A stretch of 31,925 nucleotides of DNA, taken from positions 1 to 31,925 of IMG/VR virus record IMGVR_UViG_2917881069_000003. One strand, written 5' to 3'. Origin of the DNA: a virus. Its lineage: Duplodnaviria; Heunggongvirae; Uroviricota; Caudoviricetes. Position 1 is the first letter of the stretch. Every line of letters begins with the position of its first letter. The notes below the pieces were generated by a model. That model had not been told where the DNA came from, searched no databases, and saw nothing but the letters and a program-made list of their open reading frames with translations. A program made the translations under genes and the position numbers. Positions 12,323 through 31,925 of the stretch are shown one piece after another.

Positions 12323-12853
12323 TTATCCGGGATAAACAGTAATAACATCACCATCACAGACCACACCGCCTGTATACAGACAGCCGGGAATGTCCTGGAT
12401 AATGTTCAGACCGATAAGGTGGCGACTTGCGGGTTTGGCATCGGCAATAAGCCGTTCCATTTCCAGATACATCTCCTCCGTGATGCCGCTTTCCAGCACA
12501 CCGATATCAAGGCGAAAGGTTCCGGGCGGGTCGTTTGTCTCCCACCATTCCTTTACGTTAATGAGATAGCCGAGCGGCTCCACCACGCGTCGGATTGCGC
12601 CTATAGTGCCCTTATGACAGTGAATGAAATAGGCATCGCGGATAACGGCGCGTTTTGTCGCTTCCGGCCATTTTTCATCCCACCTGTCGACCGAAAACGC
12701 CCACGCCAGCCACGGCAGCAGATTTGCCGGGCAGGTGTCCGGGTTCCACAGTTCACGAATACTGACCGGCGTTTTTTCAATTTCCGCACAGGCTTTTGCG
12801 GCGGCGACTTCAAGCGGTGATGAGCCGGTCGGCAGCAGTCGCGAATCACTCAT
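12323..12853 (-). CDS. I: Baseplate protein I (176 aa)
   Basis: Length and position (J-I-H) as in P2. Confidence 0.88.
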   Translation of the reverse strand: MSDSRLLPTGSSPLEVAAAKACAEIEKTPVSIRELWNPDTCPANLLPWLAWAFSVDRWDEKWPEATKRAVIRDAYFIHCHKGTIGAIRRVVEPLGYLINVKEWWETNDPPGTFRLDIGVLESGITEEMYLEMERLIADAKPASRHLIGLNIIQDIPGCLYTGGVVCDGDVITVYPG

Positions 12854-13755
12854 CCGAGCCTCCGGTCACGACGCTGTATTCGGTGCAGAAAGACGCCTGC
12901 GTACTGTTGAGCACAATGTCGGCCAGTGGTGCGGCCAGCTCGACACGCTGCACGCCTTCCACATGCAAAGCGGCATAAATGGCAGACAGACGGATGTCAC
13001 GCCCCAGCCGGTGCTGTGCCGTGATGTACGCTTCCAGTTTTTTCACGGCAGCAGCGCGGATGGGTTCGCTTTCGGGACCAGGGTAAAGGTAAAGCGTGGC
13101 GTTTATCTGGTATTCAACAATGGCGGCAGACTGCACGGTCACGCGGTCGGCCACCGGCCTGACGTCCTCACCATTAAGGGCGTTGCGCACCACCGCCAGC
13201 AGGTCTTCGGATGCCACACCGTTATTTTCACGTGACAGCACGGAGATGGTGACACAGGCAGGAGACGGACTGGTGACAGAGATATCCGCGACACGCCCGT
13301 CGGCACTGCGACCATGATACTGATAGGCTCCCACCGACCCGGCGACGCTTAAACCTTCAAACGCCTGCTGAATACGCAGACGATAATCGGTGTCAGACTC
13401 CATCACTGCCGGTGTCGGCGGGGATGGTCGAATCATCTGCCGGGGTGATAGTCAGGCGCGTGGTGTTGTAATTGGCACCAATCACATCAAGGTCATTACC
13501 GGCGGCACAGGCCAGCATCACCGCCCGTGCGGCCTCATTCACACGCTGACGCCAGATAAGCTCACGATAAGCATTTTCCTCCAGCAGTTTGACGAGAGGC
13601 TCAGATTCCAGCGTCAGGGTACGGGCGACCGCCTCCTGCTGGTCTTCCGGGTAAAGGGAAATCAGTGTCGCCTTGCGTTCGGCAAGAATGGTTTCAAAGT
13701 CCAGCTCCTCGACCACATCCGGTGCGGGTAGCTGGTTCAGGTCGATAATCGGCAT
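12846..13755 (-). pseudogene. J: Baseplate wedge protein J, interrupted by a 1-nt insertion in a G/C run
   Basis: Two overlapping ORFs in different frames (13393-13755 and 12846-13436) together cover the P2 gpJ sequence. 910 nt is one base more than 303 codons (P2 J is 302 aa). The break is at gggg 13420-13423, where the recalled P2 sequence DDSTIPPTPAVMESD needs one fewer G/C. Confidence 0.7.
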
Positions 13756-13759
13756 GGTT

Positions 13760-14107
13760 TCAACTCACAGGGATGGTTAACGAAAGTGGCTGGCCGGTGT
13801 CGTTGTGCTGGCCGGTTAACGTAACTGTCATTCGCCCGTCAAAGCTGCGCGCCGTGGTGACGGATGACAGGGTGACGCGGGGTTCCCATTTCAGCACCGC
13901 CATGTAACAGGCGACCTTAATCTGCAACTCAAGCGCCGGGGTCTGCGGCTGGTCAATCATTGATGCCAGCAACGAGCCGTAATCACGACGCATCACCCGT
14001 GAGCCGACCGGTGTGCGCAGGATATCGCCGATACTCTGGCTGATATGCTCAAGGTCAGTGACAGTCAGGCCATCACTGCGATTCATTCCGAGATAACGCG
14101 CTGTCAT
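13760..14107 (-). CDS. W: Baseplate protein W (115 aa, gp25/lysozyme-like family)
   Basis: Length and position as in P2; ATGA overlap with V. Confidence 0.88.
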   Translation of the reverse strand: MTARYLGMNRSDGLTVTDLEHISQSIGDILRTPVGSRVMRRDYGSLLASMIDQPQTPALELQIKVACYMAVLKWEPRVTLSSVTTARSFDGRMTVTLTGQHNDTGQPLSLTIPVS

Positions 14108-14745
14108 TTTGTCCCCTGTGTCCAGTTGTCTCCTGACTTAACACCACCGTGACCGTGGTCATCCACCTGAACGCCGTTAGACGTGAATTTCCCGTCGGTA
14201 TGCTCGATGTTGCCGTGCATCTTCCCGCCCTTCTGCACTTCCAGCGTGCCGGTAGTCAGTTTGTTAGTGCAGACCACTTCCGGTGTGTCCAGGGTGATGC
14301 GGGTTGACGCTTTCACCATGACCACCGGCACCGTGGCAGTAACAGAATCAGAAGCCGTCACGCTGGCCGTTTTAATTCCGCTTACCGTGAGTGCACTGGT
14401 TTCGGGTTCATATTCAATCACCGCCCCGTCAGGGAAACGGATATGCAGGGCATCCGCCGACGCAGACGGCGCGGGGTTATCACCGGAATAAATCCCCGGC
14501 AGAACGAACGCCGTGTCGAGTTCACCGCCCACGGCCAGAATCAGCACCTGTTCCCCCACGGAAGGTGCCCACCACGTGCGCGAACGCCCGGCGCGACAGG
14601 TCAGCCACTGAAGCCAGTCGGTGCACATGCCGCCGGTCTGCACACGGCAGCGACCGGCGTTAAGGTCGGTTTCGACGACAAGGCCGGTACGAATCATGTT
14701 GCGCAGTACGCGCGCGAGTTCCTGAATATTTGCGAGAGTGTTCAT
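14104..14745 (-). CDS. V: Baseplate spike/assembly protein V (213 aa)
   Basis: Length close to P2 gpV (211 aa) and position as in P2. Confidence 0.88.
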   Translation of the reverse strand: MNTLANIQELARVLRNMIRTGLVVETDLNAGRCRVQTGGMCTDWLQWLTCRAGRSRTWWAPSVGEQVLILAVGGELDTAFVLPGIYSGDNPAPSASADALHIRFPDGAVIEYEPETSALTVSGIKTASVTASDSVTATVPVVMVKASTRITLDTPEVVCTNKLTTGTLEVQKGGKMHGNIEHTDGKFTSNGVQVDDHGHGGVKSGDNWTQGTK

Positions 14746-14811
14746 AACGGGAAGGATGCCGCCGGGTCATACCGGCGGCAATGTGACGATGAGGTGTCGG
14801 GAATGGCACAA

Positions 14812-15264
14812 CTAACGGTCGAGGTGAGCCAGGATAATCTCTTCAATCATCTGCACATCCTCACCGGTAAAGCCGAGCAGAGGACGCGCCGGATAATCAA
14901 TTTTCTTACCGTCTTTCCGGGTTTCTTCCGACAGACCGAACTGATGCACACTGGCGATTTTCGGCGACTTCCCGCCGTAAAATTCCATTGATGCCTGCTC
15001 CGGGCTGGCGCGGATATGCAAAAAACGACTGGTGATAAGTTTCGCAAACATTTTTCGCTTAACGCGACCGGTCTTTTTTCTGGCGCTCTGCTGCTGGCGT
15101 GGCGCATAGGGTGTGCCGTCCGGGGCTTTCTGTGTCATCACCCGACGCTGCTGACTCTGCCGCAGGCGTTTCGCCAGTTCGGCACTCAGTCGCCGACGCC
15201 CTGACGGTGACAGCGACTCAATAAGTCCGGTCAGCCGGTCTTCAAAACGCTTAAACTCATTCAT
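14812..15264 (-). CDS. S: Tail completion protein S (150 aa)
   Basis: Length and position as in P2. Confidence 0.88.
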   Translation of the reverse strand: MNEFKRFEDRLTGLIESLSPSGRRRLSAELAKRLRQSQQRRVMTQKAPDGTPYAPRQQQSARKKTGRVKRKMFAKLITSRFLHIRASPEQASMEFYGGKSPKIASVHQFGLSEETRKDGKKIDYPARPLLGFTGEDVQMIEEIILAHLDR

Positions 15265-15724
15265 CCCACTTGCTCACCAGTTCGCCATTGATATACAGCT
15301 CCATCGGGCGGGTAACCGGCTCCGGCGGCGGAGGTTCCGGGATATTCTTCACATGCAGCGCGCCGTCCACCTCACTGACCAGCGTGCGCTCGGTCAGCAT
15401 CAGGCTGATGCTGATATCAAAGCTGCTGTCATTGTTGATGTCTGCATAAAACGTGAAGCCCTTTTTCTGGCCTGCGTCGGTGGTCATGATGTCGGGCTGA
15501 TTTTCCCGCAGCCACGCCAGCACCGGCACGATGAGCAGGTCAAAATCACCGGTAAAGTCGGTCACAATGACATTGAGCGTGTAACGCTTTTCGAATGACA
15601 ACGACGCCGCCAGTGTGGAGGCAATACTCCCGTCATCCACGAATATCCGCAGCATCTCGGGACTGGTTTTCAGCACCGTGACGGCATCAGTCAGCGCCCT
15701 GCGCAGGCTGTCGGGTTTGAGCAT
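15257..15724 (-). CDS. R: Tail completion protein R (155 aa)
   Basis: Length and position as in P2. Confidence 0.88.
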   Translation of the reverse strand: MLKPDSLRRALTDAVTVLKTSPEMLRIFVDDGSIASTLAASLSFEKRYTLNVIVTDFTGDFDLLIVPVLAWLRENQPDIMTTDAGQKKGFTFYADINNDSSFDISISLMLTERTLVSEVDGALHVKNIPEPPPPEPVTRPMELYINGELVSKWDE

Positions 15725-15977
15725 CGTTTTCGTCCTGACAGTGTTTAATCATTTTTACCTGGCTGGCACAGCGTGCCAGCGCGTTCTCAAGCTGCCGGAT
15801 ATCGGCACTTAAATCACCGTTCGTCTCCGGGTCACTGCCCGGCATCGGGCAAAGGCTCACTTTCGGGCAGGCGTTGTGGACAATCACTGGCGTCGGTGCA
15901 GGCCGGGCGCTGGTGCAACCGGCGCACAGCATCAGGCAGGCCAGCGCCGTACCAGCGGCGAAAATCTTCGTTTTCAT
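15687..15977 (-). CDS. lysC: LysC, Rz1-like outer-membrane lipoprotein spanin (96 aa), nested in the lysB 3' region in another frame
   Basis: Internal ATG at 15975-15977 (minus) gives MKTKIFAAGTALACLMLCAGC..., a lipoprotein signal peptide with lipobox LCAGC, followed by a Pro-rich region. 96 aa as in P2 LysC. Confidence 0.7.
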   Translation of the reverse strand: MKTKIFAAGTALACLMLCAGCTSARPAPTPVIVHNACPKVSLCPMPGSDPETNGDLSADIRQLENALARCASQVKMIKHCQDENDAQTRQPAQGAD

Positions 15978-16257
15978 TGAGTAACCTCGTGATGGTTTTC
16001 TCGCGCTGTGCTTCACGCTTCGCGGCGTTCTCCAGCTCCTGACGCAGTGCAACCTGCGCCAGCTCGTTTTTGTCTGCCCTGGTGAGCGCAACATGAAGCT
16101 GGTTTCTCAGCATGGTGATGGTCGTCTGCTGCCCGCTGGCGACATTGTTTGCCCTGTCCAGTGAGGTGCGCAGGCTGGCGTTTTTATGCTTCGCCAGAAA
16201 CAGACCCGCCACCGCCAGCGATAACAACACAACCATCACAATCATCAGCTTTGACAT
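15832..16257 (-). CDS. lysB: LysB, Rz-like inner-membrane spanin (141 aa)
   Basis: N-terminal TM helix followed by a coiled-coil, charged periplasmic domain; position after lysA as in P2. Confidence 0.85.
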   Translation of the reverse strand: MSKLMIVMVVLLSLAVAGLFLAKHKNASLRTSLDRANNVASGQQTTITMLRNQLHVALTRADKNELAQVALRQELENAAKREAQREKTITRLLNENEDFRRWYGAGLPDAVRRLHQRPACTDASDCPQRLPESEPLPDAGQ

Positions 16258-16670
16258 GGTTCCCGCCCCTCAAGACGCTGACGGCAGGCCGTATGTATCA
16301 GCCGGAAAAACAGCGACGCCACGAGATAAATCAGCGCGGTAAAAATCCACCCGGCAGCGACCAGCGAGATAAATGTCGCCACCATCACCACCAGAGCTAC
16401 TGCCCGTCTGCGCCACGGCACCGGCTGCAAAAACAGCGACGTGACAATCTTCACGGCCAGTGATTCCGGCGGCAGCTCCCGCCTGTAGCGTTCCAGCACA
16501 TACGCAGTGGCATACACGCCGACACCACCGGCAACCACACAGATAACCGTCGCCAGAATCGCCCAGGCAGCGACAAAATTGACGGCCACGCTCTGCGGGT
16601 AAATCAGGGACAGTGCCAGCATCAGCGCCAGCGACACGTTCAGCATCAGTAAAAGGGATAATTTCTTCAT
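16245..16670 (-). CDS. lysA: LysA lysis-timing membrane protein (141 aa)
   Basis: Multi-TM hydrophobic protein of P2 LysA length and position. Confidence 0.82.
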   Translation of the reverse strand: MKKLSLLLMLNVSLALMLALSLIYPQSVAVNFVAAWAILATVICVVAGGVGVYATAYVLERYRRELPPESLAVKIVTSLFLQPVPWRRRAVALVVMVATFISLVAAGWIFTALIYLVASLFFRLIHTACRQRLEGREPCQS

Positions 16671-16684
16671 GGTGTTTACTCCGT

Positions 16685-17182
16685 TTAAGCCGGTACGCCG
16701 CCAGCGGTACGCCAGACGGTGACCAGTTTTTCCAGTGAATGCTCACGCTGACCGTAACCGGCACCCGGCAGGGACGCCCAGATATTGCGACAGCGTGAAA
16801 TGGCGCGCTCAATGCGTCCCGCCCGGATGTCATCCAGTGCACCGCGTTCGCGGATCAACTGAATGGCGAGTCTGTCCTGTGACAACGGACTGAAATCAGG
16901 CAGGGCAAGCTGTTTGCGGTAATGCGGCCAGAACAGGTAAAGCTGCTGATAGCGACCGGAGGCCGTGGATTTTTCACCGCGACGGTTAAACACCTTCGCC
17001 GGTCGGCCATGGGCGAACGGGTGGTCACTGTAGTCGGTGAAAATTTCCGGCTTTCCGTCCAGTCCGGTGACTATCACGTCATAGCCCCGGTTTTTCGTCA
17101 GCGGATGATTCGCCGTCCCTTCGGACACCGCCAGCATGTCGAGAAAGGCCGCGATATTCTGATGCGTGTTAATTACCGGCAT
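16685..17182 (-). CDS. K: Endolysin K (165 aa)
   Basis: Length and sequence match P2 gpK; position between Y and lysA. Confidence 0.9.
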   Translation of the reverse strand: MPVINTHQNIAAFLDMLAVSEGTANHPLTKNRGYDVIVTGLDGKPEIFTDYSDHPFAHGRPAKVFNRRGEKSTASGRYQQLYLFWPHYRKQLALPDFSPLSQDRLAIQLIRERGALDDIRAGRIERAISRCRNIWASLPGAGYGQREHSLEKLVTVWRTAGGVPA

Positions 17183-17463
17183 TACTGTTTCCCCCTGCCC
17201 TTAAAACGGCGCTGAATGGCAATCTCAATCACCTGATAACCGGCGATACCCAGCATGGAGCCGATGCCGCACACTGCAGGCAGTGACAGGTCAGGAAACT
17301 GCACCAGAACAACACCGGCAACCATCGAGACAAAACCACCGAGCAACATGCGCCCGATAAACAGACGCGGGGTGATGGGTTCACCACCGGCAAGCACCTT
17401 GCCGACAACAATCAGCACCCCAATCATGAAAAGCGACAGGACGCTTTTTTCTTCTGCTGTCAT
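17182..17463 (-). CDS. Y: Holin Y (93 aa)
   Basis: 93-aa hydrophobic protein with charged C-terminus; position as in P2. Confidence 0.85.
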   Translation of the reverse strand: MTAEEKSVLSLFMIGVLIVVGKVLAGGEPITPRLFIGRMLLGGFVSMVAGVVLVQFPDLSLPAVCGIGSMLGIAGYQVIEIAIQRRFKGRGKQ

Positions 17464-17466
17464 GCG

Positions 17467-18179: not shown

Positions 18180-18278
18180 GACTACCTCTGAAAAGTCGGG
18201 CGGTGGACGCCGGTGCAGTGTCAGGTGATTCACCCTCACTGACCGGCGTGCCGCCCTGGCGCGGGGCGCATTCGGTTG

Positions 18279-21012: not shown

Positions 21013-21185
21013 TGTCAGGAGTCCTGAATAGTGATTAGAGGAGTCACATGTCGGCATCAGTTTCCCGACGATGCGCATCCTCCGCCATCAGTCCCGGATG
21101 GCTTATCACTGACACAACAGCACCTTAGCGAATCGCGGGGCGCGACTCAGTAGCCTTGCCGTGTATTCATCACGGCGAGGTATTC

Positions 21186-22958
21186 ATGACCATCACCACA
21201 GACACCACTCTTTTACACGACCCGCGTCGTCAGGCGGCGCTGCTGTACTGGCAGGGATTTTCCGTGCCGCAGATTGCCGCCATGTTGCAGATGAAACGCC
21301 CGACGGTGCAGAGCTGGAAACAGCGCGACGGCTGGGACAGCGTTGCCCCCATCAGCCGTGTCGAAATGAGTCTGGAAGCGCGGCTGACCCAGCTCATCAT
21401 CAAACCGCAGAAAACCGGCGGTGACTTCAAGGAAATTGACCTGCTGGGACGCCAGATTGAACGACTGGCACGGGTAAACCGTTACAGTCAGACCGGCAAC
21501 GAGGCAGACCTTAATCCGAACGTTGCTAACCGCAACAAAGGCGGGCGCCGCAAACCGAAAAAGAATTTTTTCAGTGACGAGGCCATCGAAAAGCTGGAGC
21601 AGATTTTCTTTGAGCAGTCTTTTGAATATCAGTTGCACTGGTATCGCGCCGGGCTTGAGCACCGCATCCGCGATATTCTGAAATCCCGCCAGATTGGCGC
21701 AACGTTTTATTTTTCCCGCGAGGCGCTGCTGCGCGCCCTGAAAACCGGTCATAACCAGATTTTTCTGTCGGCCAGTAAAACGCAGGCGTATGTGTTCCGC
21801 GAATACATCATCGCCTTTGCCCGTCTGGTTGACGTTGACCTTACCGGTGACCCGATTGTCCTGGGCAATAACGGCGCAAAACTGATTTTTCTCGGCACCA
21901 ACTCCAACACCGCACAGAGCCATAACGGCGACCTGTACGTCGACGAGATTTTCTGGATCCCGAATTTTCAGGTACTGCGTAAGGTGGCATCAGGTATGGC
22001 CTCACAGAGTCACCTGCGCTCGACCTATTTCTCCACCCCGTCCACGCTGGCGCACGACGCCTACCCGTTCTGGTCTGGTGAACTGTTCAACCGGGGACGC
22101 GCCAGCGCCGCCGAACGTGTGGAAATCGACGTCAGTCATAACGCCCTAGCCGGTGGGCTTCTCTGTGCGGACGGTCAGTGGCGGCAGATTGTCACCATTG
22201 AGGATGCCCTGAAAGGTGGCTGCACACTGTTCGACATTGAGCAGCTCAAACGCGAAAACAGCGCCGACGATTTTAAAAACCTGTTCATGTGTGAATTTGT
22301 TGACGACAAGGCGTCGGTGTTCCCGTTCGAGGAGCTGCAACGCTGCATGGTCGACACGCTGGAAGAATGGGAAGACTATGCGCCGTTTGCCGCGAATCCG
22401 TTCGGCTCCCGCCCGGTATGGATTGGTTACGACCCGTCACACCGTGGCGACAGCGCCGGATGCGTGGTACTGGCACCGCCGGTGGTGGCCGGTGGCAAAT
22501 TCAGAATACTTGAGCGTCACCAGTGGAAAGGCATGGACTTTGCCACTCAGGCGGAATCCATCCGCAAACTCACCGAAAAATACAACGTCGAATACATCGG
22601 TATTGATGCCACCGGCCTCGGTGTCGGCGTGTTCCAGCTCGTGCGCTCGTTCTATCCCGCCGCGCGCGATATCCGCTACACACCGGAAATGAAAACCGCA
22701 ATGGTGCTCAAGGCAAAAGACGTTATCCGCCGTGGCTGTCTGGAATATGACGTCAGCGCCACCGACATCACCAGCTCGTTTATGGCTATCCGCAAGACCA
22801 TGACCAGCAGCGGACGCAGCGCCACCTATGAGGCCAGTCGCAGCGAGGAAGCCAGCCACGCCGACCTCGCCTGGGCGACCATGCACGCCCTGTTAAATGA
22901 GCCACTCACCGCCGGTATCAGCACCCCGCTGACATCCACCATTCTGGAGTTTTACTGA
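21186..22958 (+). CDS. P: Terminase large (ATPase) subunit P (590 aa)
   Basis: ATG at 21186 with GAGG RBS gives MTITTDTTLLHDP..., 590 aa as in P2 gpP; divergent from O as in P2. Confidence 0.9.
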   Translation: MTITTDTTLLHDPRRQAALLYWQGFSVPQIAAMLQMKRPTVQSWKQRDGWDSVAPISRVEMSLEARLTQLIIKPQKTGGDFKEIDLLGRQIERLARVNRYSQTGNEADLNPNVANRNKGGRRKPKKNFFSDEAIEKLEQIFFEQSFEYQLHWYRAGLEHRIRDILKSRQIGATFYFSREALLRALKTGHNQIFLSASKTQAYVFREYIIAFARLVDVDLTGDPIVLGNNGAKLIFLGTNSNTAQSHNGDLYVDEIFWIPNFQVLRKVASGMASQSHLRSTYFSTPSTLAHDAYPFWSGELFNRGRASAAERVEIDVSHNALAGGLLCADGQWRQIVTIEDALKGGCTLFDIEQLKRENSADDFKNLFMCEFVDDKASVFPFEELQRCMVDTLEEWEDYAPFAANPFGSRPVWIGYDPSHRGDSAGCVVLAPPVVAGGKFRILERHQWKGMDFATQAESIRKLTEKYNVEYIGIDATGLGVGVFQLVRSFYPAARDIRYTPEMKTAMVLKAKDVIRRGCLEYDVSATDITSSFMAIRKTMTSSGRSATYEASRSEEASHADLAWATMHALLNEPLTAGISTPLTSTILEFY

Positions 22959-23992
22959 TGAGCAAGAAAAAAGGGAAAACACCGCAACCTGCGGCAAAAA
23001 AAATGACCGCCAGCGCCCCGAAAATGGAGGCATTCACCTTTGGTGAGCCGGTGCCGGTACTCGACCGCCGTGACATTCTGGATTACGTCGAGTGCATCAG
23101 TAACGGCAGATGGTATGAGCCGCCGGTCAGCTTTACCGGTCTGGCAAAAAGCCTGCGTGCTGCCGTGCATCACAGCTCACCGATTTACGTCAAACGTAAT
23201 ATTCTGGCCTCGACATTTATCCCGCACCCGTGGCTGTCCCAGCAGGATTTCAGCCGCTTTGTGCTGGATTTTCTGGTGTTCGGTAATGCGTTTCTGGAAA
23301 AGCGTTACAGCACCACCGGTAAGGTCATCAGACTGGAAACCTCACCGGCAAAATATACCCGCCGTGGTGTGGAAGAGGATGTTTACTGGTGGGTGCCGTC
23401 CTTCAACGAGCCGACAGCCTTCGCGCCCGGTTCCGTGTTTCACCTGCTGGAGCCGGATATTAATCAGGAGCTGTACGGCCTGCCGGAATATCTCAGCGCC
23501 CTTAACTCTGCCTGGCTGAATGAGTCGGCCACGCTGTTCCGCCGCAAGTATTACGAAAACGGCGCTCATGCCGGATACATCATGTACGTCACCGATGCCG
23601 TGCAGGATCGCAACGATATCGAAATGCTTCGCGAAAACATGATCAAGTCGAAAGGCCGCAACAACTTTAAAAACCTGTTTCTCTATGCCCCGCAGGGAAA
23701 AGCCGACGGCATTAAAATTATCCCGCTCAGTGAAGTGGCAACGAAGGACGATTTTTTTAATATCAAAAAAGCCAGCGCCGCTGACCTGCTGGACGCGCAC
23801 CGCATCCCCTTTCAGTTGATGGGTGGCAAGCCGGAAAACGTCGGGTCTCTGGGTGATATTGAGAAAGTGGCAAAGGTCTTTGTCCGCAATGAGCTTATCC
23901 CGCTACAGGACAGGATTCGGGAAATAAACGGCTGGCTCGGTCAGGAGGTCATCCGCTTTAAAAACTACTCACTGGACACTGACAACGGCTGA
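22958..23992 (+). CDS. Q: Portal protein Q (344 aa)
   Basis: 344 aa as in P2 gpQ; ATGA overlap with the P stop. Confidence 0.9.
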   Translation: MSKKKGKTPQPAAKKMTASAPKMEAFTFGEPVPVLDRRDILDYVECISNGRWYEPPVSFTGLAKSLRAAVHHSSPIYVKRNILASTFIPHPWLSQQDFSRFVLDFLVFGNAFLEKRYSTTGKVIRLETSPAKYTRRGVEEDVYWWVPSFNEPTAFAPGSVFHLLEPDINQELYGLPEYLSALNSAWLNESATLFRRKYYENGAHAGYIMYVTDAVQDRNDIEMLRENMIKSKGRNNFKNLFLYAPQGKADGIKIIPLSEVATKDDFFNIKKASAADLLDAHRIPFQLMGGKPENVGSLGDIEKVAKVFVRNELIPLQDRIREINGWLGQEVIRFKNYSLDTDNG

Positions 23993-23997
23993 ACATC

Positions 23998-24019
23998 GCC
24001 GCCTGCGGGCGGCTTTTTT
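23998..24019 (+). terminator. Rho-independent terminator after Q (gccgcc tgcg ggcggc + tttttt)
   Basis: 6-bp GC stem, 4-nt loop and T6 tract read directly, 6 nt after the Q stop. Confidence 0.65.
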
Positions 24020-24161
24020 ACACCCCGTCATCACGCCCTCACACGCTCACCACCGCACAAAACACCCCGCAGACACACCAACGCCTCAACGGGCAGACTA
24101 AGCGCCTTCACGACGCGCTCAGACACTGAAAAAATAAAATCAGCACCACCGCCAGCGCGCA

Positions 24162-24180
24162 GTGCTTTCCCCGCCTCGCC
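24162..24180 (-). other. cos: cos cohesive-end site: 19-nt sequence GGCGAGGCGGGGAAAGCAC on the minus strand
   Basis: Plus strand gtgctttccccgcctcgcc is the exact reverse complement of the P2 19-nt cohesive end as I recall it. It lies about 170 bp beyond Q, as in P2, with a CA-rich stretch between the Q terminator and cos. Confidence 0.75.
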
Positions 24181-24370
24181 CGCCCGCTTCATGGGGCTGT
24201 TTTGATGCAGATGCATTATGTCTCCCTCCCCAGTGCTGCGTTGCAGTCGGAACACAAAAACCGTTATCAAAATCACATGCAAATAGACGCAGTCAAATGC
24301 GCTGCCGCCCCTCGCAATACCTTCAATTTCATGATAAAAAAACACAATCCCTTAAAAGAGCATTATCCTC

Positions 24371-25237
24371 ATGAAAAAAGTATATGAACTAACCAGTGAA
24401 GAAGCACTGTCATATTTTCTTCGCCATGATTCCTACACAACCTTAGAATTGCCAGCATATATTAATTTCGCTACGTTATTAAATAATATTAATTCGTCTA
24501 TCCATAACAAAAAAATTAAAATTGAACCAACCGCCAAAGACCTGATGGGTAAAAATATCAATTATGAGGTGCTTGTCAGTAAAGATGGACTATATAGCTG
24601 GCGCAGGATAACACTTATCAATCCTCTTTATTATGTCTACTTCTGTAGAAAAATCACAGCACCAACAACTTGGGAAATCATAACAGAAAAATTCAAATCT
24701 TTTGAATCAAACGACCTTTTTACATGTTCAAGCATCCCCGTCAGGAAAGACGACTCATCAAACATTGCGGCGTCAGTAATGAATTGGTGGGGAGATTTTG
24801 AACAAAAAAGCCTTGCCCTTGCTCTTGAATATGAATTCATGTTCAGCACTGATATCTCAAACTTCTACCCATCAATATATACTCATAGTTTTGAATGGGT
24901 ATTCATATCAAAAGAAGAGGCAAAGAAGAAAAAAGACAAAAACAACCCTGGCCGATTAATTGACAACCACATTCAAATGATGATGAACAATCAGACAAAT
25001 GGTATTCCACTCGGCAGCACATTGATGGATACTTTTGCTGAGCTTATCCTGGGTAAAATCGATATAGAATTAAGAAAAAAAACTAACGAATTCAAGATTA
25101 CAAACTACAAGGTTGTACGTTACCGTGATGATTACCGGATTTTTTCTAATAGTAAAGATGATTTAGACATAATATCCAAATGTTTAGTCAACGTGTTAGG
25201 TGATTTTGGTTTAGATCTAAAACTCAAAAAAAACTGA
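24371..25237 (+). CDS. Reverse transcriptase domain ORF of an Abi-P2/AbiK-like RT (288 aa as sequenced; N-terminal part of a roughly 515-codon gene)
   Basis: RT catalytic motifs in the translation: STDISNFYPSI (motif A, nt 24845-24877), GIPLGSTLMDTFAELIL (motif B, 25001-25051), VRYRDDYRIF (YxDD motif C, 25115-25144). The ORF ends at a TGA immediately after an A8 run. Confidence 0.75.
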   Translation: MKKVYELTSEEALSYFLRHDSYTTLELPAYINFATLLNNINSSIHNKKIKIEPTAKDLMGKNINYEVLVSKDGLYSWRRITLINPLYYVYFCRKITAPTTWEIITEKFKSFESNDLFTCSSIPVRKDDSSNIAASVMNWWGDFEQKSLALALEYEFMFSTDISNFYPSIYTHSFEWVFISKEEAKKKKDKNNPGRLIDNHIQMMMNNQTNGIPLGSTLMDTFAELILGKIDIELRKKTNEFKITNYKVVRYRDDYRIFSNSKDDLDIISKCLVNVLGDFGLDLKLKKN

Positions 25238-25253
25238 GCTATATGAAGATATT

Positions 25254-25919
25254 GTGCTTCACTCCTTGAAACAAGCCAAAAAAGACTATATCAAAGAAAA
25301 AAGACACAAGTCACTCCAGAAAATGCTCTACTCAATATATTTACTCTCACTAAAACATCCAAACTCGAAAACAATCGTTAGATATCTCAATGATTTTCTT
25401 AGAAAATTATTTAGAATGAATACAATTACAGATAACGGTCACCAAATAGATGCCATGCTTGGTATTATTTCAAGCATCATGGCAAAAAACCCTACAACGT
25501 ACCCAGCAGGAACTGCCATTTTCTCAAAACTCCTCAGTTTTCTTTATACTGACGACACATATCCTAAATTCAAAAAACTAGAACAACTCCATAAAAAACT
25601 TGCTAAGCAACCCAATACAGAAATGCTTGATATATGGTTTCAGCGAATTCAAGCAAAAATAAACCCAGAGTGGGAAAGCTCTTATAAGTCAGCTCTATGC
25701 GTCCGTGTAAATGATGAACTCACGAAAAAGAAAACAGTTTCTGAAAATAATTTATGGAATATTGACTGGATTCCAGGAAAAGAAACGAACAGAAACAAAG
25801 CCCAAATATTATCATTACTAACGAAAACAAAAATTGTTGATGCAGAAAAATTTGAGAAAATGGATAATGACATAATACCCGAAGAAGTTGATTTATTCTT
25901 TAAAGAATACAGCAATTAA
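25254..25919 (+). CDS. C-terminal alpha-helical domain ORF of the same RT (221 aa as sequenced, in another frame; ORF-track start is a GTG)
   Basis: The frame is open from 25221. Removing one A from the A8 run at 25226-25233 joins it to the upstream ORF as ...LDLKLKKTELYEDIVLHSLKQ... Lys/Leu-rich helical composition typical of the C-terminal domains of Abi-type RTs. Confidence 0.6.
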   Translation: MLHSLKQAKKDYIKEKRHKSLQKMLYSIYLLSLKHPNSKTIVRYLNDFLRKLFRMNTITDNGHQIDAMLGIISSIMAKNPTTYPAGTAIFSKLLSFLYTDDTYPKFKKLEQLHKKLAKQPNTEMLDIWFQRIQAKINPEWESSYKSALCVRVNDELTKKKTVSENNLWNIDWIPGKETNRNKAQILSLLTKTKIVDAEKFEKMDNDIIPEEVDLFFKEYSN

Positions 25920-25926
25920 TATCCCA

Positions 25927-25958
25927 AAGCCATGCTAGTAACATAACATGGCTTTTCA
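25927..25958. terminator. Candidate terminator hairpin between convergent RT and A genes
   Basis: aagccatg ... catggctt inverted repeat followed by tttcaaa on the + strand. Confidence 0.35.
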
Positions 25959-26022
25959 AATCATCCATTAAGCAGTTATCAAGAGCGAACACAATATTCT
26001 ATTCTGATGAGTTAAATTATCA

Positions 26023-28308
26023 TTAGCTCCACTTAATATCTGTTATATCCTCCGGCCACTCATCAGCGACCGGATACGTAAATTTTTCCCCACAATAGCT
26101 TACCGTTGCCCCACGCGCCAGCACCTCAAGCTCCCATCGCTGCGGCCTGATACCGTTCTGAGCAAGGTCAACGCGGATACGGGTAATTTGCATTCGTTCC
26201 GACCGGGTCAGTCTGGCCGATGGTGCAATTTCATGCGGTTTTAACGGGCTTCCGTTTCTTTGCTGACGATTTGGCGTTCTCAGCCCGTGTTTTAATGCGC
26301 CCCTGAGCGCCTTCACGACCTCCGGGTCATTCCATTCGATAACACCGTCATCAACCAGATTAAGCACTGCTGCGGCGTGCTCAGAAGGTGTGGGAGCCGG
26401 TAACGAAGTATCACCACCGGTGACCTTTCCACAGTTATTGACAGGACTCCGAGGCGCGGCGATGCCGCTTTTTAAAGTCAAAGGCTCAACGACCGGAACT
26501 TTCGGCACAATGCGCCAGTCCGTCGTTCTGGTGATATGAATATGACGCGCGCCGAGATGCGGCGCGTAAATGCCGACCACTCTCTCGACTTCTTCCTCGT
26601 ACTCGTTAACGTCATCCGACGGGCTACGGGCGACCCTGACAGTCTGACAATCGCGCGGGACATTTGCCCCGCCCTGCGCGCTGATATACAACGCAAAATC
26701 ACCACTGTCTGCAGCGGCGCGTGCAGCCTCGACGCGCTCGTCAAACTCATCAGCAATGCTGACGCCGCGAGGCAATTTGCGTAGTTCACGGTAAGCCCCC
26801 ATTGTCGGCAGACCAACCGTTTTAAATTGCGGAATGCGCCACGTTGACGCCCATGCGGTAACAGCCGCAGCTGTGTCTTTCAGCGGCCTACCGGTATCAT
26901 TATCGAGCTGACCATCCAGTGCATAGCCGTCGATGTTTTTTGAGATGTATTTCGCGATATATCCCGCAGCACCGCCCCGGTTAAGGTGTTTTGCCTGAAA
27001 ACGGTTTCGCGCGGCTCCTCTTTCGTCGCCATCCTCTTTGAGCGCATAGCGACGCATGATTTCAATAATCTGGTTACGCTGGCGTGGATTACAAAAAAGC
27101 ATCATATGCCAGTGCGGCGTTCCGTCGTGGTGTGGTTCAACAACACGCAAACCGTAGGCCTGTAAATCATTATCCTTGAATGCCGTGCGCATCAGGCTCC
27201 AGATACGGCAGAGATAACGCTGCGCATCCTTTGGATTAAATGCCTCATCATTCCAGCCGTGATTTAGCTGGACGGTTTTACTTTCGCCTTTTCTGACCTG
27301 ACGTGTCGGGTGATACTTTGACGGCGCGGTCAGCGTGATAAACATCCCCACATCACCCTCTGCGGCAGCGTAACGCTCAATACCGGCGATGGTGTTCATC
27401 AGCTCCATCCGGCGAATTTCTGGATTAGAAATACTGCCCATCACCTTACTGATAAGGTCGATGCGCTCGCCGGTTTCCCTGTTTTCAAGGTCACACGATT
27501 TAAGAAATTCCAGATTTGCCTGGCGGCGCGCACGCACATCACGAATGGCATGTTTACTGGCATAAGGAGAACGGTCTTTATTGACCTCCCCGACAGCAAT
27601 CAGTAACGCCTCATGCCAGCGCATACGCTGGCCTTTAAGCTGATGAGTCCACCATTCATCGTTAAACAGACGGGCAATGGCAGAATATGCCTGCCTCGTG
27701 GTCATCTGCCCTTTACGGTATTTTTTCCAGTAGAGCGGGGAAATATTGAAAGCACGTGCAGCGCCAGCAACATGACCATACAGGTGAGCCTGCGCCTCAT
27801 CCGTAAACAGCGATTCTTTCTCGCCATGCGCATCCACCCAGGCATCGCAGAGTTCCTCATACATTATGAAAAGCTGCGATGAGATACGGGCGGCAAACTT
27901 TTTCAGCTCCTTGTCATTCATTCCAGGCAGGCGCGCATAGTGGTCACGCTCTGCCAGAAACAGCAACGACGCGTCGGTGTTCATTTCATGGCGCTGATTA
28001 ACGCGCTCAATGCGCGGCCATAAACGACGCTGAAAAGTGGATGTGAGGAAATAAAACCCGTGCACCGGGCTTTTATTGCGCCGGATGTAGTCATAGCGTG
28101 AAGTAAACAGCGAGCGCAAAAAGTAAGGCAGGCGATTAATCGTGGATAAAACACCTTGCACCTGACGCATCTCGTCACGTGTAAGGGGTCTTTCGCGCCC
28201 GACGGCCTCGCGTGGCGCGTTCCATGCATAAGCACCGGTAAACGCCTTACCGGTGCCTACGGCAAATGCTGACGGAGGGACAAAACGCCCGGAGGCTTTA
28301 ACGGCCAT
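26023..28308 (-). CDS. A: Replication initiation protein A (rolling-circle endonuclease, 761 aa)
   Basis: Start at MAVKASGRFVPPSAF... (ATG 28306-28308) gives 761 aa as in P2 gpA; the ORF-track version is 14 aa longer. Confidence 0.9.
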   Translation of the reverse strand: MAVKASGRFVPPSAFAVGTGKAFTGAYAWNAPREAVGRERPLTRDEMRQVQGVLSTINRLPYFLRSLFTSRYDYIRRNKSPVHGFYFLTSTFQRRLWPRIERVNQRHEMNTDASLLFLAERDHYARLPGMNDKELKKFAARISSQLFIMYEELCDAWVDAHGEKESLFTDEAQAHLYGHVAGAARAFNISPLYWKKYRKGQMTTRQAYSAIARLFNDEWWTHQLKGQRMRWHEALLIAVGEVNKDRSPYASKHAIRDVRARRQANLEFLKSCDLENRETGERIDLISKVMGSISNPEIRRMELMNTIAGIERYAAAEGDVGMFITLTAPSKYHPTRQVRKGESKTVQLNHGWNDEAFNPKDAQRYLCRIWSLMRTAFKDNDLQAYGLRVVEPHHDGTPHWHMMLFCNPRQRNQIIEIMRRYALKEDGDERGAARNRFQAKHLNRGGAAGYIAKYISKNIDGYALDGQLDNDTGRPLKDTAAAVTAWASTWRIPQFKTVGLPTMGAYRELRKLPRGVSIADEFDERVEAARAAADSGDFALYISAQGGANVPRDCQTVRVARSPSDDVNEYEEEVERVVGIYAPHLGARHIHITRTTDWRIVPKVPVVEPLTLKSGIAAPRSPVNNCGKVTGGDTSLPAPTPSEHAAAVLNLVDDGVIEWNDPEVVKALRGALKHGLRTPNRQQRNGSPLKPHEIAPSARLTRSERMQITRIRVDLAQNGIRPQRWELEVLARGATVSYCGEKFTYPVADEWPEDITDIKWS

Positions 28309-28573
28309 ATGAGCCAAAAGCCTCTGAACAACGCCTGCTGAGTTGCTCAACCTGCGCGTTTAAATCAGCAAAAGACTTTGCGCTTCCGGTCAGAATATCG
28401 TGATGCATCAGGCCGGAAACGAGCTGGCTTAATTTCGGGTAATAACCAACCACCGACAGCCATTCCTGACCGGCGTTTTTACCGCTTTCCGCTCTCTTTT
28501 TCTCGTGGAGAATAAACTGAAAGCTGTCACTGGTAACGACATAACGTTCGCCAATTTCAATACGAATACTCAT
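28298..28573 (-). CDS. Hypothetical early-operon protein (91 aa), overlapping the A start
   Basis: ORF in the P2 early operon position immediately upstream of A; function unknown. Confidence 0.55.
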   Translation of the reverse strand: MSIRIEIGERYVVTSDSFQFILHEKKRAESGKNAGQEWLSVVGYYPKLSQLVSGLMHHDILTGSAKSFADLNAQVEQLSRRCSEAFGSYGR

Positions 28574-28794
28574 GCCGTTCTCCGGTAATGTTTGTTTTTT
28601 GCTTCAAAGACTGACTGACAGGAAACACAACGCGTGGCTGACGGATAAGCCGCACGACGGGCAGCAGGTATTGGCGCATCACACTCTTCGCAAACCAGCG
28701 AAGAAACACCGCAATGTTTTACCCTTGCCGCGTTAATCTGGCGCTCCAGTAATTCAGCCTGTTGTTCCTGAATAAAATCTACGTTGTCCGGCAT
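28570..28794 (-). CDS. TraR/DksA-family C4 zinc-finger protein (74 aa)
   Basis: CEECDAPIP ... RCVSCQ four-cysteine motif in a small early-operon ORF. Confidence 0.65.
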   Translation of the reverse strand: MPDNVDFIQEQQAELLERQINAARVKHCGVSSLVCEECDAPIPAARRAAYPSATRCVSCQSVFEAKNKHYRRTA

Positions 28795-29099
28795 TACCAG
28801 CTCCTTTTGTCGTTCAGCTTCTTAAATTCATCAGCGCAATAGCTGGCGATTTCTGTCGTTAATTTTGTCAGTTCATCCACGGATGAAATTTGCTTATGAA
28901 ATACAGCGCGTTTAACAAGTAAATTGACCACATCAGACAGGAGGTTTAATTCATTCTGATAAATCGCGATAACAGATTCAGTTATGTCGCGTTTTTCTTT
29001 ATCAAGACAAAGTTGAATAAGAGACAAATCACCATTTTCCATAACGGCGATTTTTAAGGCGTTATTCAGTAATACAACTGAATGAGAACAGGACATCAA
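28794..29099 (-). CDS. Hypothetical early-operon protein (101 aa; true start may be internal)
   Basis: ORF in the early operon between B and the zinc-finger gene; no recognisable motif. Confidence 0.45.
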
Positions 29100-29320
29100 A
29101 GTACCTCCCCGCGAGACAATCCGATATTGTGAAATTTTTCCGACTCCTGACTGAGCAGCTCGACTATCTCCACGCGGGATAACTCCGCCTTTGTGATGTG
29201 GCGAATCATGGCGTCAAGATGAGAAGAAAAGCGCGTCGCAGCGTCAGCCTGTGCTTCGGTTCTGGCCTGTTGCAGCAGTAATGCGTATTTACCGCACTGA
29301 TTTTCAGAAACTGTATGCAT
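29096..29320 (-). CDS. Hypothetical early-operon protein (74 aa)
   Basis: Small ORF immediately downstream of B with stop/start coupling to the next ORF. Confidence 0.45.
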
Positions 29321-29383
29321 AACTTTCTCCAGGCAAAAAGAAGCCCCGCACGATTAAGTGCGTTTAAAACTCTGGTTAATTAT

Positions 29384-29884
29384 TTAATGCAGATATTGCT
29401 CTGGTTTTACCGACGTCAGAATTGTCGGTGCATACTCAAACAGGCTGAATAATTCACGTAATGCACGGAATAAAGCATCACGCCAGTAACATGACTCTTC
29501 ATTAATTCGCCAGTATGGCTGGTTGAATTCTTTTTCAGTCAATCCGGCATGCATAAATAAAGTACGACGCTGACTGACTGTTAAAAAACTAATATATGCA
29601 TACTCACTTGCGCCAACCTGACGGCGTTTTGAGAATGCCCCACGCAATTCATCAATTGCACAAACCAGCCGTTCACGTTCGACGTCGTTCATTTCTTCAA
29701 AACGCATCGTTGCATGACGTTGTTTTAACTGCGCATGAAAGCAAACCGTTAGCCGTTCGCGTTCCATCATCTGATTATAATAATCACATGTATCCTGCCA
29801 GCGAGGGACGGCCAGATGCTTACCAATTATCCGGCGCATAGCTGCTGGCTGTTTTTCAACGAGATTAAGCGTCATCACTGTCAT
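29384..29884 (-). CDS. B: Replication protein B (helicase loader, 166 aa)
   Basis: 166 aa beginning MTVMTLNLVEKQPAAMRRIIGKHLAVPRWQ..., matching P2 gpB length and sequence as I recall it. Confidence 0.85.
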   Translation of the reverse strand: MTVMTLNLVEKQPAAMRRIIGKHLAVPRWQDTCDYYNQMMERERLTVCFHAQLKQRHATMRFEEMNDVERERLVCAIDELRGAFSKRRQVGASEYAYISFLTVSQRRTLFMHAGLTEKEFNQPYWRINEESCYWRDALFRALRELFSLFEYAPTILTSVKPEQYLH

Positions 29885-30051
29885 TTCCAGACCCTCCGGC
29901 TTTTCAGAAAGGTCAGAGCCTTCTTTAACGGACTCTGTTTTTTGGTGCGGATAATGATTCCCTTGCGTCCCTTCCCGTGGGTGATGGTGAAGTCAATCGC
30001 CCTGGGGCTTTCGTTACGCAATAACTGAGCAATACAACGCGGCTCCTTCAT
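29881..30051 (-). CDS. Hypothetical small early protein (about 56 aa from the internal start with the best RBS)
   Basis: ATG at 30049-30051 (minus) is preceded by AGGTGGAAAGG; the longer ORF-track version (to 30138) would overlap the cox-like gene by 77 nt. Confidence 0.4.
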   Translation of the reverse strand: MKEPRCIAQLLRNESPRAIDFTITHGKGRKGIIIRTKKQSPLKKALTFLKSRRVWK

Positions 30052-30061
30052 CCTTTCCACC

Positions 30062-30391
30062 TTAAGCCGCACGGCCATGTCTTGATTTGCTATAACTAAT
30101 GCGATTTTTCCAGTCGTGCCATTCTGATGGAGCTTCATCGACTAGCTGTGCTGCGTACTTGTCCCACTCACGACGATTAATCCATAACTCAGCATGACCT
30201 CCCGGCTTTAATGGGTCTGCCATGTAAAAGGCAGGCAGCTTGCCTGCTTTCGCCATTTCAGCTACAGCGCGAGGCGTCTTACCGATGTAAAGAGCAAAAC
30301 CCTCTTTCGAGAGTAGATCCGACGGTGCGGCAGCGAGCTTGATGTCACATTTTTTTACTTTTTGTGAGATCAGATACTTTTTCTCCAACAT
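30062..30391 (-). CDS. cox: Cox-like excisionase/early repressor (HTH DNA-binding, 109 aa as ORF)
   Basis: First gene of the leftward early operon, divergent from C; contains ...GKTPRAVAEMAKAGKLP..., resembling the P2 Cox helix-turn-helix region. Start not verified. Confidence 0.5.
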   Translation of the reverse strand: MLEKKYLISQKVKKCDIKLAAAPSDLLSKEGFALYIGKTPRAVAEMAKAGKLPAFYMADPLKPGGHAELWINRREWDKYAAQLVDEAPSEWHDWKNRISYSKSRHGRAA

Positions 30392-30523
30392 CGTTATTCA
30401 TTTCTGATCCAATACTCATTTTGATATCCTCAACTTTGGTGCCATTCAACCAGAGCTATTTGAAGCCGCTCTGCGTTGTTCTGGCTTGTCGCATGCAACA
30501 TAAATTACGAGATACGACAATTC
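30392..30523. promoter_or_regulatory. Immunity switch region: divergent early (Pe) and repressor (Pc) promoters and operators expected here
   Basis: Intergenic region between the divergent cox-like and C genes, by analogy with the P2 Pe/Pc arrangement; individual -10/-35 and operator repeats not resolved by eye. Confidence 0.4.
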
Positions 30524-30835
30524 ATGTCAAATACACAAATCAAATCTCAAGCAGAGAAACTCGCACTTATTAGGGAGTCAGAAAGGATGACAAGGAAGCA
30601 AGTCGCTGAATTAACTGGGATTAACTACAACACCTATGCTGGATATGAGCAGGGAAAAGTAAAGATGTCTTTTGACGCAGGTATGAAATTTTTCAAGCCA
30701 GAAAGATTTCGCAAGTACCGTGACTGGTTCATGTTTGATGAAACTGATCCCGCTGGCGGACAAATAGCCCCGGCGCTCGCGCACATTGGGCAAGACTCAA
30801 CAACCTTGCACCACTCAGACCAAAAGACTGGCTGA
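30524..30835 (+). CDS. C: Immunity repressor C (103 aa), P2 C-like but divergent
   Basis: ATG at 30524 gives MSNTQIKSQAEKLALIRESERMTRKQVAELTGINYNTYAGYEQGK... with an HTH; the C-terminal ...GGQIAPALAHIGQDSTTLHHSDQKTG resembles the P2 C C-terminus as I recall it. Confidence 0.72.
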   Translation: MSNTQIKSQAEKLALIRESERMTRKQVAELTGINYNTYAGYEQGKVKMSFDAGMKFFKPERFRKYRDWFMFDETDPAGGQIAPALAHIGQDSTTLHHSDQKTG

Positions 30836-30928
30836 CGATTTATTCAGCATATGTGTGCAGTAAATGTACGAAAGAAAATTGCATTAATTTTCAAGTAGTA
30901 GAAGTAAACAGCGTCATCGGAGGGCTTT

Positions 30929-31925
30929 ATGTCTATTAAAAAGCTCGATGATGGTCGTTATGAAGTGGACGTCAGACCGCAGGGTGCAGATGGAAAACGT
31001 ATCAGGCGGAAATTTAAAACTAAGGGTGAAGCTCAAGCATTCGAACGTCATGTCCTGGTTAACTACCACAACAAAGAGTGGTTGGAGAAGCCAGCCGACC
31101 GCCGAACTCTTACAGAGTTGTTAGGCAGATGGTGGATATATCACGGAAAATCACATGAGCGTGGAGATATTGAACGGGGGGCGTTTGACGACAATAATCG
31201 CCAAATTTGCAGAAATGGGAGTGTCCAGAGCTGACCAGCTAACAAAGAAAACGATAACTGATTATCGCGTTGTAATGATGAACGATGGTCTTAAACCAGC
31301 CAGCGTAAATCGGCATCTGGCAATAATGAGCGGGATGTTCACCAAGTTAATTGACGCCGGTGAATACCACTCTCACAACCCGTTCCGTGAGGTTAAGCGG
31401 TTACGTGAAGCTGTTACGGAAATGGCTTTTTTGTCCAGTGAAGAGATTACGCGGCTGTTATCCATGCTTGATGGTGATGAATTAAATGCAACTCTGGTCT
31501 GCCTTTCTACTGGTGGACGCTGGAGTGAAGTGTCAAATTTAAAAGCTGAACACATCATTAACCAGATGGTTACGTTTATGAAAACTAAAAACGGAAAGCG
31601 CAGGACAATTCCCGTGTCGCAGGACCTGATTAAACGGATCAAGACCAAAAATTCAGGCAGGCTTTTTAATGCCAGTTACTACAAAGTGCGCAACGCTCTC
31701 AGGGAAGTAAAACCCGATTTACCTGACGGACAGGCAGTGCATGTTTTGAGGCATACATTTGCCACACATTTTATAATGAATGGAGGTAACATAATCACAT
31801 TGCAGCGCATCCTGGGTCATTCTAACATTCAGCAAACTATGACCTACGCACACTTTGCACCGGATTTCTTACAAGATGCAGTGACTCTTAACCCGGTGTC
31901 AGGAATGTCCATAATGCGTCCATAA
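30929..31925 (+). pseudogene. int: Tyrosine integrase (P2 Int family), interrupted by a 1-nt indel in a G6 run
   Basis: Two ORFs in different frames (30929-31234 and 31155-31925). N-terminus MSIKKLDDGRYEVDVRPQG...; C-terminal catalytic region with HVLRHTFATH...LGHSNIQQTMTYAHF (R, H-x-x-R, Y). Removing one G from gggggg at 31176-31181 restores a single reading frame of about 331 aa. Confidence 0.75.

Follow-up and report, generated by a model that had tools for sequence, protein, structure and literature searches.

Frameshifts in J, the reverse transcriptase gene and int of a P2-like prophage in Escherichia cryptic clade II strain E2661 are very probably homopolymer errors of an Ion Torrent draft

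The stretch of DNA analysed here (the window, 31,925 nt) corresponds to bases 3-31927 of contig PDIG01000018.1 (GCA_004745185.1) from Escherichia cryptic clade II strain E2661. Its open reading frame (ORF) map and Pfam families identify a P2-like (Peduovirus) prophage with structural, lysis, replication and lysogeny modules in the P2 gene order, ogr-D-U-T-E-FII-FI-cargo-H-I-J-W-V-S-R-lysis-X-L-M-N-O-P-Q-cargo-A-B-cox-C-int. Positions 270-7024 align to phage D8 free of gaps, and no tRNA genes were found in the window. The programmed E/E' frameshift is intact, as the original prediction had stated, and its slippery site TTTTTTG is the only one at which the out-of-frame arrangement of a programmed frameshift is conserved. 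The genes and runs discussed below are listed in Table 1.

Table 1. Interrupted genes, their altered runs and other features discussed (positions within the window).
Feature	Position	Strand	Description
E/E' programmed frameshift slippery site TTTTTTG	4868-4874	-	intact
H, tail-collar fibre	9455-12312	-	783-aa body and 145-aa ORF with Peptidase_S74 intramolecular chaperone domain
H deletion	9962/9963	-	TT to T on coding strand
J	12846-13755	-	910 nt vs 909 nt in relatives; split into 120-aa and 196-aa ORFs (13393-13755 and 12846-13436)
J run with extra G	13420-13423	+ strand letters	G4 vs G3 in relatives and second assembly
RT, AbiP2-type defence	24371-25919	+	split into 288-aa and 221-aa ORFs (24371-25237 and 25254-25919); the latter 217 aa in GenBank annotation
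RT run with extra A	25219-25222	+	A4 vs A3 in intact references
cox	30062-30419	-	fourth frameshift, overlooked in the original prediction; annotated ORF 109 aa
cox run with extra base	30350-30356	+ strand letters	T7 vs T6 in relatives
int, tyrosine integrase	30929-31925	+	997 nt vs 996 nt in relatives; 101-aa and 256-aa ORFs (30929-31234 and 31155-31925)
int run with extra G	31176-31181	+	G6 vs G5 in relatives and second assembly

Three genes, J, RT and int, had been described as broken by changes in mononucleotide runs, and all three breaks are present, each a 1-base change in run length compared to close intact relatives. The G4 and G6 runs were correctly named, but the A8 run given for RT was not the site: this run (25226-25233) lies beside the break and keeps the same length in the two intact references, and the motif ...DLNSKKTE... 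of intact RT proteins is restored solely by dropping an A from the A4 run. Removal of one base likewise returns J to 302 aa and int to 331 aa, with 100% protein identity to WP_001121498.1 and WP_000023391.1, respectively. As these proteins are identical despite DNA differences from the intact homologues at 11 positions in J and three in int, all of the differences are synonymous and show no sign of decay. Neither amino-acid changes nor further lesions, the marks of relaxed selection, were seen in corrected J and int.

The remaining genes were assumed to be intact, which does not hold. An extra base in a T7 run also shifts cox, where the break is masked by a fortuitous out-of-frame ATG that starts the annotated ORF, and H is cut from its S74 domain by a 1-base deletion. 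The same type of lesion extends into the host. In the adjoining 8.9 kb of host DNA the conserved genes ycaD and dmsA are each split by a +1 homopolymer insertion (A6 versus A5 in ycaD, an extra base at a T7 run in dmsA). The excess of homopolymer frameshifts elsewhere on the contig that the original prediction had proposed to look for was thus found in cox, ycaD and dmsA, giving six +1 events in 40.8 kb. All six are insertions, and the resulting runs are 4 to 7 bases long. A random single-base insertion in the window would leave a run of at least 4 with a probability of 0.056, so that three out of three would be expected with p ~2e-4.

Pseudogenes receive no protein product in the GenBank annotation. 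No match was obtained when the truncated J fragment was looked up as an exact product. For the two RT fragments (288 aa and 217 aa), Cox (109 aa), the C repressor (103 aa) and an ORF of 104 aa, the sole match was the GenBank contig; by themselves such look-ups say little about a second assembly.

The E2661 data (PDIG00000000) are Ion Torrent alone, single-end, with reads of 35-400 bp at 40x, and the draft of 95 contigs was built with MIRA plus SPAdes (PMC6639607). The draft hence comes from an artefact-prone platform without orthogonal polishing. Long-read or pyrosequencing data had been guessed as the source; the platform is not a long-read one, while the suspected weakness was the right one, as Ion Torrent is flow-based and shares the homopolymer weakness of pyrosequencing.

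A second assembly was available in the Logan contigs of run SRR6148326, which were built independently and cover window positions 6846-9359, 9427-15024, 21101-25081 and 25369-31925 together with 4.4 kb of flanking host DNA; the sites in RT and dmsA lie outside these contigs. Compared to PDIG01000018.1 they show 0 substitutions in 23,033 bp and exactly four 1-base gaps. These gaps are the extra homopolymer bases of the deposited contig in J, int, cox and ycaD, all sites that Logan covers, and all four genes are open in the Logan contigs: J reads through with 302 aa (contig L013), int with 331 aa and Cox with 118 aa (both L020), and YcaD with 382 aa. For Cox, run length is the sole difference. 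Based on the 100% identity over 23 kb, SRR6148326 is probably the E2661 read set or that of a clonal isolate. Should both assemblies go back to one read set, the comparison would probe the assembler rather than the reads. Across the 23 kb of Logan contigs, H is the single broken gene.

Complete genomes point in the same direction. At a threshold of at least 99% identity, the 86-nt segments of the window around the altered runs had no counterpart among matching complete E. coli records for J (0 of 1,182) and int (0 of 395) or among the 19 matching complete E. coli genomes for cox, none of which carries the window allele. For J, this means that the window allele with identical flanks occurs in none of the 1,182 records.

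Taken together, we consider it very likely that the frameshifts in J, RT and int are consensus errors of the draft and not mutations of the strain, and that the same applies to cox, ycaD and dmsA; the break in dmsA, too, was probably caused by a consensus error. For J, RT and int, an error is almost certain because a second, otherwise identical assembly shows J and int intact. The original preference for homopolymer error over biology is thereby borne out by the Ion Torrent-only source and by the intact J and int of the Logan contigs. On Ion Torrent a homopolymer is recorded as a single analogue signal, and its length is frequently miscounted. The MIRA/SPAdes-based pipeline then probably locked in the over-called (+1) length at some runs, and each extra base shifts the frame and makes an intact gene resemble a pseudogene. 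If so, J, RT (AbiP2), cox and int would all be working genes, and the 1-base deletion in H would be the sole read-supported defect of the prophage. Among the points against this explanation, G3 and A3 are short for flow-sequencing errors, and the frameshift in RT is not directly contradicted, its site lying outside the SRR6148326 contigs. Not every homopolymer difference from relatives can be counted as an error, a broader view that was rejected, as an intergenic A7 run (24336-24342) is backed by two independent contigs.

The lesion in H stands apart from the others. On the coding strand, one T of a TT pair is lost (ACGTAAAGG with the deletion compared to ACGTTAAAGG without it), and H ends four codons past the predicted S74 autocleavage serine (...VVSDAT*), so that the chaperone domain is left on an ORF of its own further downstream. 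The H region is matched in two frames by a single 952-aa protein from E. coli strain 4069, and the C-terminal ORF matches Peptidase_S74. The ORF at 9455-9892 occupies the place of G in P2, but it is the Peptidase_S74 part of this long fibre type, and its assignment as the P2 G tail-fibre assembly gene was discarded. The deletion is common to the deposited contig and Logan L013, and it alone is reproduced in independent data, while the breaks in J and int are not. We lean slightly towards a real deletion, which would make the prophage truly defective for infectious virions: it is seen in both assemblies, it is a deletion in a 2-base run, unlike the six +1 run errors, and the Logan contigs are otherwise free of broken genes. 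On the other hand, both assemblies may share Ion Torrent reads, in which case a systematic under-call at H would show in both, and none of 87 matching complete genomes carries the deletion allele. Domestication may apply to the H tail fibre, a gene that the original prediction had not flagged.

A wider reading, which we hold to be unlikely, would take the H deletion as the mark of a grounded prophage or as the beginning of a chaperone that works in trans rather than within its own chain and, separately, would see the G6 run of int as a slippage hot spot. The G6 allele also occurs in three unrelated run assemblies and is spread over two int lineages, so that real, repeated slippage at this site is conceivable. 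However, contig L015 has a second homopolymer indel, in gene A, and the runs carrying G6 may therefore merely be error-prone.

Another alternative is that J and int are artefacts while the RT frameshift is real and inactivates a costly abortive-infection gene. Toxic defence genes are commonly inactivated, and among J, RT and int only the RT site lies outside the second assembly. The break is located within 25082-25368, the stretch between contigs L023 (to 25081) and L020 (from 25369), which were reached via the neighbouring genes Q and A. Against a real mutation, the break belongs to the same +1 type as the four insertions that the second assembly lacks. Furthermore, the Logan contigs halt on both sides of the A-rich RT stretch, L023 within another A8 run, which suggests that run lengths in the reads were ambiguous. 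Corrected RT (515 aa) is identical to a 515-aa protein (P0122) of run SRR5149961, and the corresponding contig of 2,063 bp differs from the window only by the missing extra A and one SNP that is synonymous in RT, so the gene otherwise equals an intact allele. We therefore doubt that the RT mutation is real, and the frameshift is probably an artefact like those in J and int, with the SRR6148326 contigs stopping short of the site. A natural two-gene RT system was also considered and dropped, as the relatives found mostly have single ORFs of ~515 aa and the AbiP2 profile spans the junction. This PADLOC profile matches the corrected protein with E = 1.5e-160 (residues 1-513 to profile positions 4-487 of 489). 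With RVT_1 at residues 144-292, a stand-alone length of ~500 aa and an N-terminal RT domain, it would qualify as AbiP2 (UG/Abi class 1). Its identity is 90-91% to the nearest E. coli alleles and 75% to the putative phage RT UniRef Q2P9X0 (P0009).

Heterogeneity or phase variation, with both run lengths present in the culture (e.g. G5 and G6 in int) and the assemblers choosing differently, is highly improbable. Homopolymers are indeed the sole differences between the assemblies, and int G6 turns up in further runs, spread over two int lineages, but this would require four loci, ycaD of the host among them, to be variable simultaneously, the int, cox and J segments fall below 99% identity in every matching complete genome, and the G6 runs may be error-prone, as L015 indicates. 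Runs of 3 to 6 bases are also short for efficient phase variation. Relatives have in-frame run lengths and single ORFs, unlike a programmed frameshift or a phase-variable tract.

Early domestication through three real mutations in E2661 that disable excision, virion assembly and the RT defence, the fallback of the original prediction, is hardly credible. In its favour, homopolymer runs are hot spots of natural slippage too, one read-supported lesion is present in H, and int G6 recurs in three other run assemblies, but the otherwise identical independent contigs carry unbroken J and int, leaving the idea without support for these two genes, while the conserved host genes ycaD and dmsA bear the same error class, corrected J and int have no amino-acid changes, and the data are Ion Torrent only.

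With draft errors as the preferred explanation for J, RT and int, the main value of these observations lies in quality control, as what looks like domestication would stem from an Ion Torrent assembly that had not been polished. At a rate of about one false frameshift per 7 kb, by extrapolation, several hundred spurious pseudogenes could be present in the 4.96-Mb genome, and, by the same kind of extrapolation, the other 15 genomes of the project, obtained with the same platform and pipeline, may be affected likewise. Pseudogene counts, defence inventories (here a split AbiP2) and calls of prophage intactness should not be accepted for these genomes without further checks, and run-level assemblies such as Logan offer a quick check of deposited consensus sequences. 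If the H deletion is true, E2661 would harbour a grounded P2-like prophage that still carries lysis, AbiP2 and glycosyltransferase cargo genes or, on a more speculative view, would show how a chaperone built into a fibre can naturally pass to working in trans. If int G6 is true, it could mark a site of frequent slippage by which such prophages become locked in the chromosome.

In comparison to its Peduovirus relatives (phage D8 and prophages beside pflA or yegQ), the prophage shows 96-97% DNA identity and matching product lengths, and differs by a fibre of the 952-aa type, to which the S74 chaperone is fused, by the lack of a separate G gene, by a Cox of the 118-aa type, and by a cargo of a GT2 glycosyltransferase and AbiP2. 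In published work, AbiP2 of E. coli P2 prophages is located in a hypervariable region, and resistance to phage T5 is reported for it (PMC9226505). The RT described here resembles AbiP2 of P2-like prophages by its full-length profile match and its position in the hypervariable Q-A locus, while it looks split in the deposited sequence. The resemblance to cryptic prophages, in which int and structural genes are broken but lysis and cargo genes remain open, is superficial, as the breaks here are not reproduced in independent contigs, no other decay is seen and housekeeping genes of the host bear lesions of the same kind. Among the closest known cases are the false pseudogenes of Ion Torrent and 454 assemblies. 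Hundreds of false homopolymer frameshift pseudogenes have been documented in Ion Torrent assemblies, with >400 in one genome, of which 64 were left after curation (PMC3917457). The platform, the single-base run changes, their loss in a second assembly and their spread across phage and host genes, with one in about 7 kb, all agree with these cases. A difference is that all six changes in E2661 are insertions, two of them in 3-base runs, which points to a consensus bias of the pipeline and not to random miscalls.

In the deposited sequence, J, int and RT (an AbiP2-type defence reverse transcriptase) were each aligned to an intact relative to locate the break, and a single extra base was found behind every one. 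Without this base, J encodes a 302-aa protein with 100% identity to WP_001121498.1 and int a 331-aa protein with 100% identity to WP_000023391.1; the underlying DNA differs at 11 and 3 positions, respectively, all of which must be synonymous given the identity of the proteins. RT becomes a 515-aa protein collinear with intact RTs. As the computed probability of a run of at least 4 after a random 1-base insertion is 0.056, the confinement of the breaks to homopolymers is not a matter of chance. The original prediction of three homopolymer frameshifts thus describes the deposited sequence correctly, although it misnamed the run in RT and overlooked two more broken genes. It had placed the RT break in an A8 run, but 25226-25233 is also A8 in both intact references, and the conserved DLNSKKTE stretch is restored only by deleting an A from a nearby A4 run.

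The two additional breaks in the prophage, in cox and in the tail-collar fibre gene H, came to light when reference ORFs were compared with the window in a frame-aware manner, and the prophage is thus not otherwise intact as had been proposed. All other structural genes aligned in a single frame, and the programmed E/E' frameshift is indeed preserved, with its slippery site TTTTTTG present. In cox, the true ATG at 30419 reaches a stop just past the T7 run, and the 109-aa Cox of the annotation is read from a fortuitous ATG in another frame. A search for excess homopolymer frameshifts elsewhere on the contig, suggested with the original prediction, was also positive: within 8.9 kb of host sequence inspected to the right of int, the conserved genes ycaD and dmsA are split and were skipped by the annotation. 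The ycaD split reflects A6 vs. A5, and in dmsA the additional base sits at a T7 run when E. coli SC487 is the reference.

Positions of frameshifted genes and other features (window numbering unless a contig is named; L005 carries the E2661 host flank, and L015, L016 and L017 are Logan contigs of other runs)
Feature	Position	Run or change	Comparison or context
J	split at 13393-13436	G4 at 13420-13423	relatives G3
RT	split at 25237-25254	A4 at 25219-25222	relatives A3
int	split at 31155-31234	G6 at 31176-31181	relatives G5
cox	30062-30419	T7 at 30350-30356, hidden +1 frameshift	T6
H	9455-12312	1-base deletion at 9962/9963	cuts off C-terminal Peptidase_S74 chaperone domain
ycaD, dmsA splits	L005 13950-15099 and 17569-20014 (about 34470-40540)	each +1 at homopolymer run	
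int G6 allele	L015 6001-6771, L016 1616-2386, L017 139-909		unrelated runs SRR31021686, SRR25724311, ERR14114762
IS4-family transposase gene, N-terminal end	1-186 (minus strand)		opens contig
Family 2 glycosyltransferase gene	7943-9232		FI/H interval; 429 aa, low GC (34%)

A second assembly was available in the Logan contigs of SRA run SRR6148326 containing window proteins, which cover 6846-9359, 9427-15024, 21101-25081 and 25369-31925 as well as the host flank to about 36,300 in window numbering. Across an alignment of 23,033 bases, they show no substitutions relative to the deposited sequence and exactly four 1-base gaps, namely the extra bases of J, cox, int and ycaD, which therefore belong to the deposited consensus. 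Accordingly, gene calls on these contigs gave intact J (302 aa), int (331 aa), Cox (118 aa) and YcaD (382 aa). The perfect identity leads us to infer that SRR6148326 represents either the E2661 reads or those of a clonal isolate. Not all homopolymer differences in the contig are errors, however, since an intergenic A7 run upstream of RT (24336-24342), which is A6 in 91%-identical relatives, was confirmed by the independent contigs L010 and L023.

By exact-product look-up, the window corresponds to positions 3-31927 of PDIG01000018.1 (70,013 bp), a contig of GCA_004745185.1, and one protein cluster gave the organism name Escherichia sp. E2661. This strain of Escherichia cryptic clade II was sequenced with Ion Torrent single-end reads (35-400 bp, 40x coverage) and assembled with MIRA plus SPAdes into 95 contigs without a second technology (PMC6639607). 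In Ion Torrent assemblies, frameshifts at homopolymers are known to produce spurious pseudogenes in the hundreds (PMC3917457). Early domestication, offered as the alternative to a sequencing artefact, is unsupported for J, RT and int, and J and int are intact in the SRR6148326 contigs. The artefact reading is directly supported for these two genes and strongly inferred for RT.

For RT, the SRR6148326 contigs break off within an A8 run at 25081 and resume at 25369, leaving the site at 25219 in the gap; such contig ends flanking the A-rich stretch suggest that run lengths may be ambiguous in the reads. In run SRR5149961, a 2,063-bp contig lacks the extra A and otherwise departs from the window at a single synonymous SNP; its product is exactly the corrected 515-aa RT, and this protein aligns with the AbiP2 defence RT profile over the full length (E = 1.5e-160). 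The RT break is very probably an artefact as well.

The deletion in H, which lies outside the region covered by the original prediction, is the only lesion surviving the second assembly, being common to the deposited sequence and the SRR6148326 contig. The 783-aa H ORF and the downstream 145-aa ORF together make up a single 952-aa tail-collar fibre, read in two frames, and the H stop falls four codons past the predicted autocleavage serine (VVSDAT, then stop). Assignment of the 145-aa ORF to gene G was rejected, as it represents the Peptidase_S74 intramolecular chaperone domain. If the deletion is an error, the site would read ACGTTAAAGG, and if real, ACGTAAAGG; we lean slightly towards a real mutation.

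When 86-87-nt segments around each site were searched against 5,426 complete E. coli genomes, matching records were obtained for int (395), H (87), cox (19) and J (1,182), none of them at 99% identity or more; all best hits had the in-frame length, and the H deletion occurred in none. The 256-aa C-terminal int product, which requires G6, is also found in three further Logan run assemblies as well as in two int lineages, and gene A on L015 has an additional indel (C4 vs. C5). It may reflect recurrent sequencing error in error-prone runs; alternatively, G5 could be a genuine hot spot of slippage. The recurrence leaves the verdict on E2661 unchanged. The biological interest of the frameshifts is low; their practical value lies in a caution against relying on this Ion Torrent genome set when judging pseudogenes, prophage integrity and defence systems.

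The host region adjoining this att site differs among strains: compared with E. coli SC487, the E2661 interval from pflA to ycaM is missing ycaK and ycaN (L005 12231-12310 vs. L006 1029-2710), and in E. coli HM50 pflA is directly followed by ycaD. At the opposite end, homology of P2-like relatives to the window starts only at 270, and a repeated IS4-family element probably accounts for the contig break and the absent right prophage flank.

The ORF map identifies the window as a P2-like prophage whose genes run ogr-D-U-T-E-FII-FI, cargo, H-I-J-W-V-S-R, lysis genes, X-L-M-N-O, P-Q, cargo, A, small ORFs, B-cox and C-int; the cargo positions coincide with two low-GC islands, and the window holds no tRNA gene. 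Its identity to phage D8 and other Peduovirus phages, as well as to a large number of E. coli prophages, is 96-97%. The family 2 glycosyltransferase, which had no match in PADLOC, may serve surface polysaccharide modification, and its locus varies in relatives: the gene is split into two ORFs in FDAARGOS_1276, and the product of E. coli 4069 has 513 aa. AbiP2 is known from a hypervariable locus of P2 prophages, which fits the position of RT in the window (PMC9226505).
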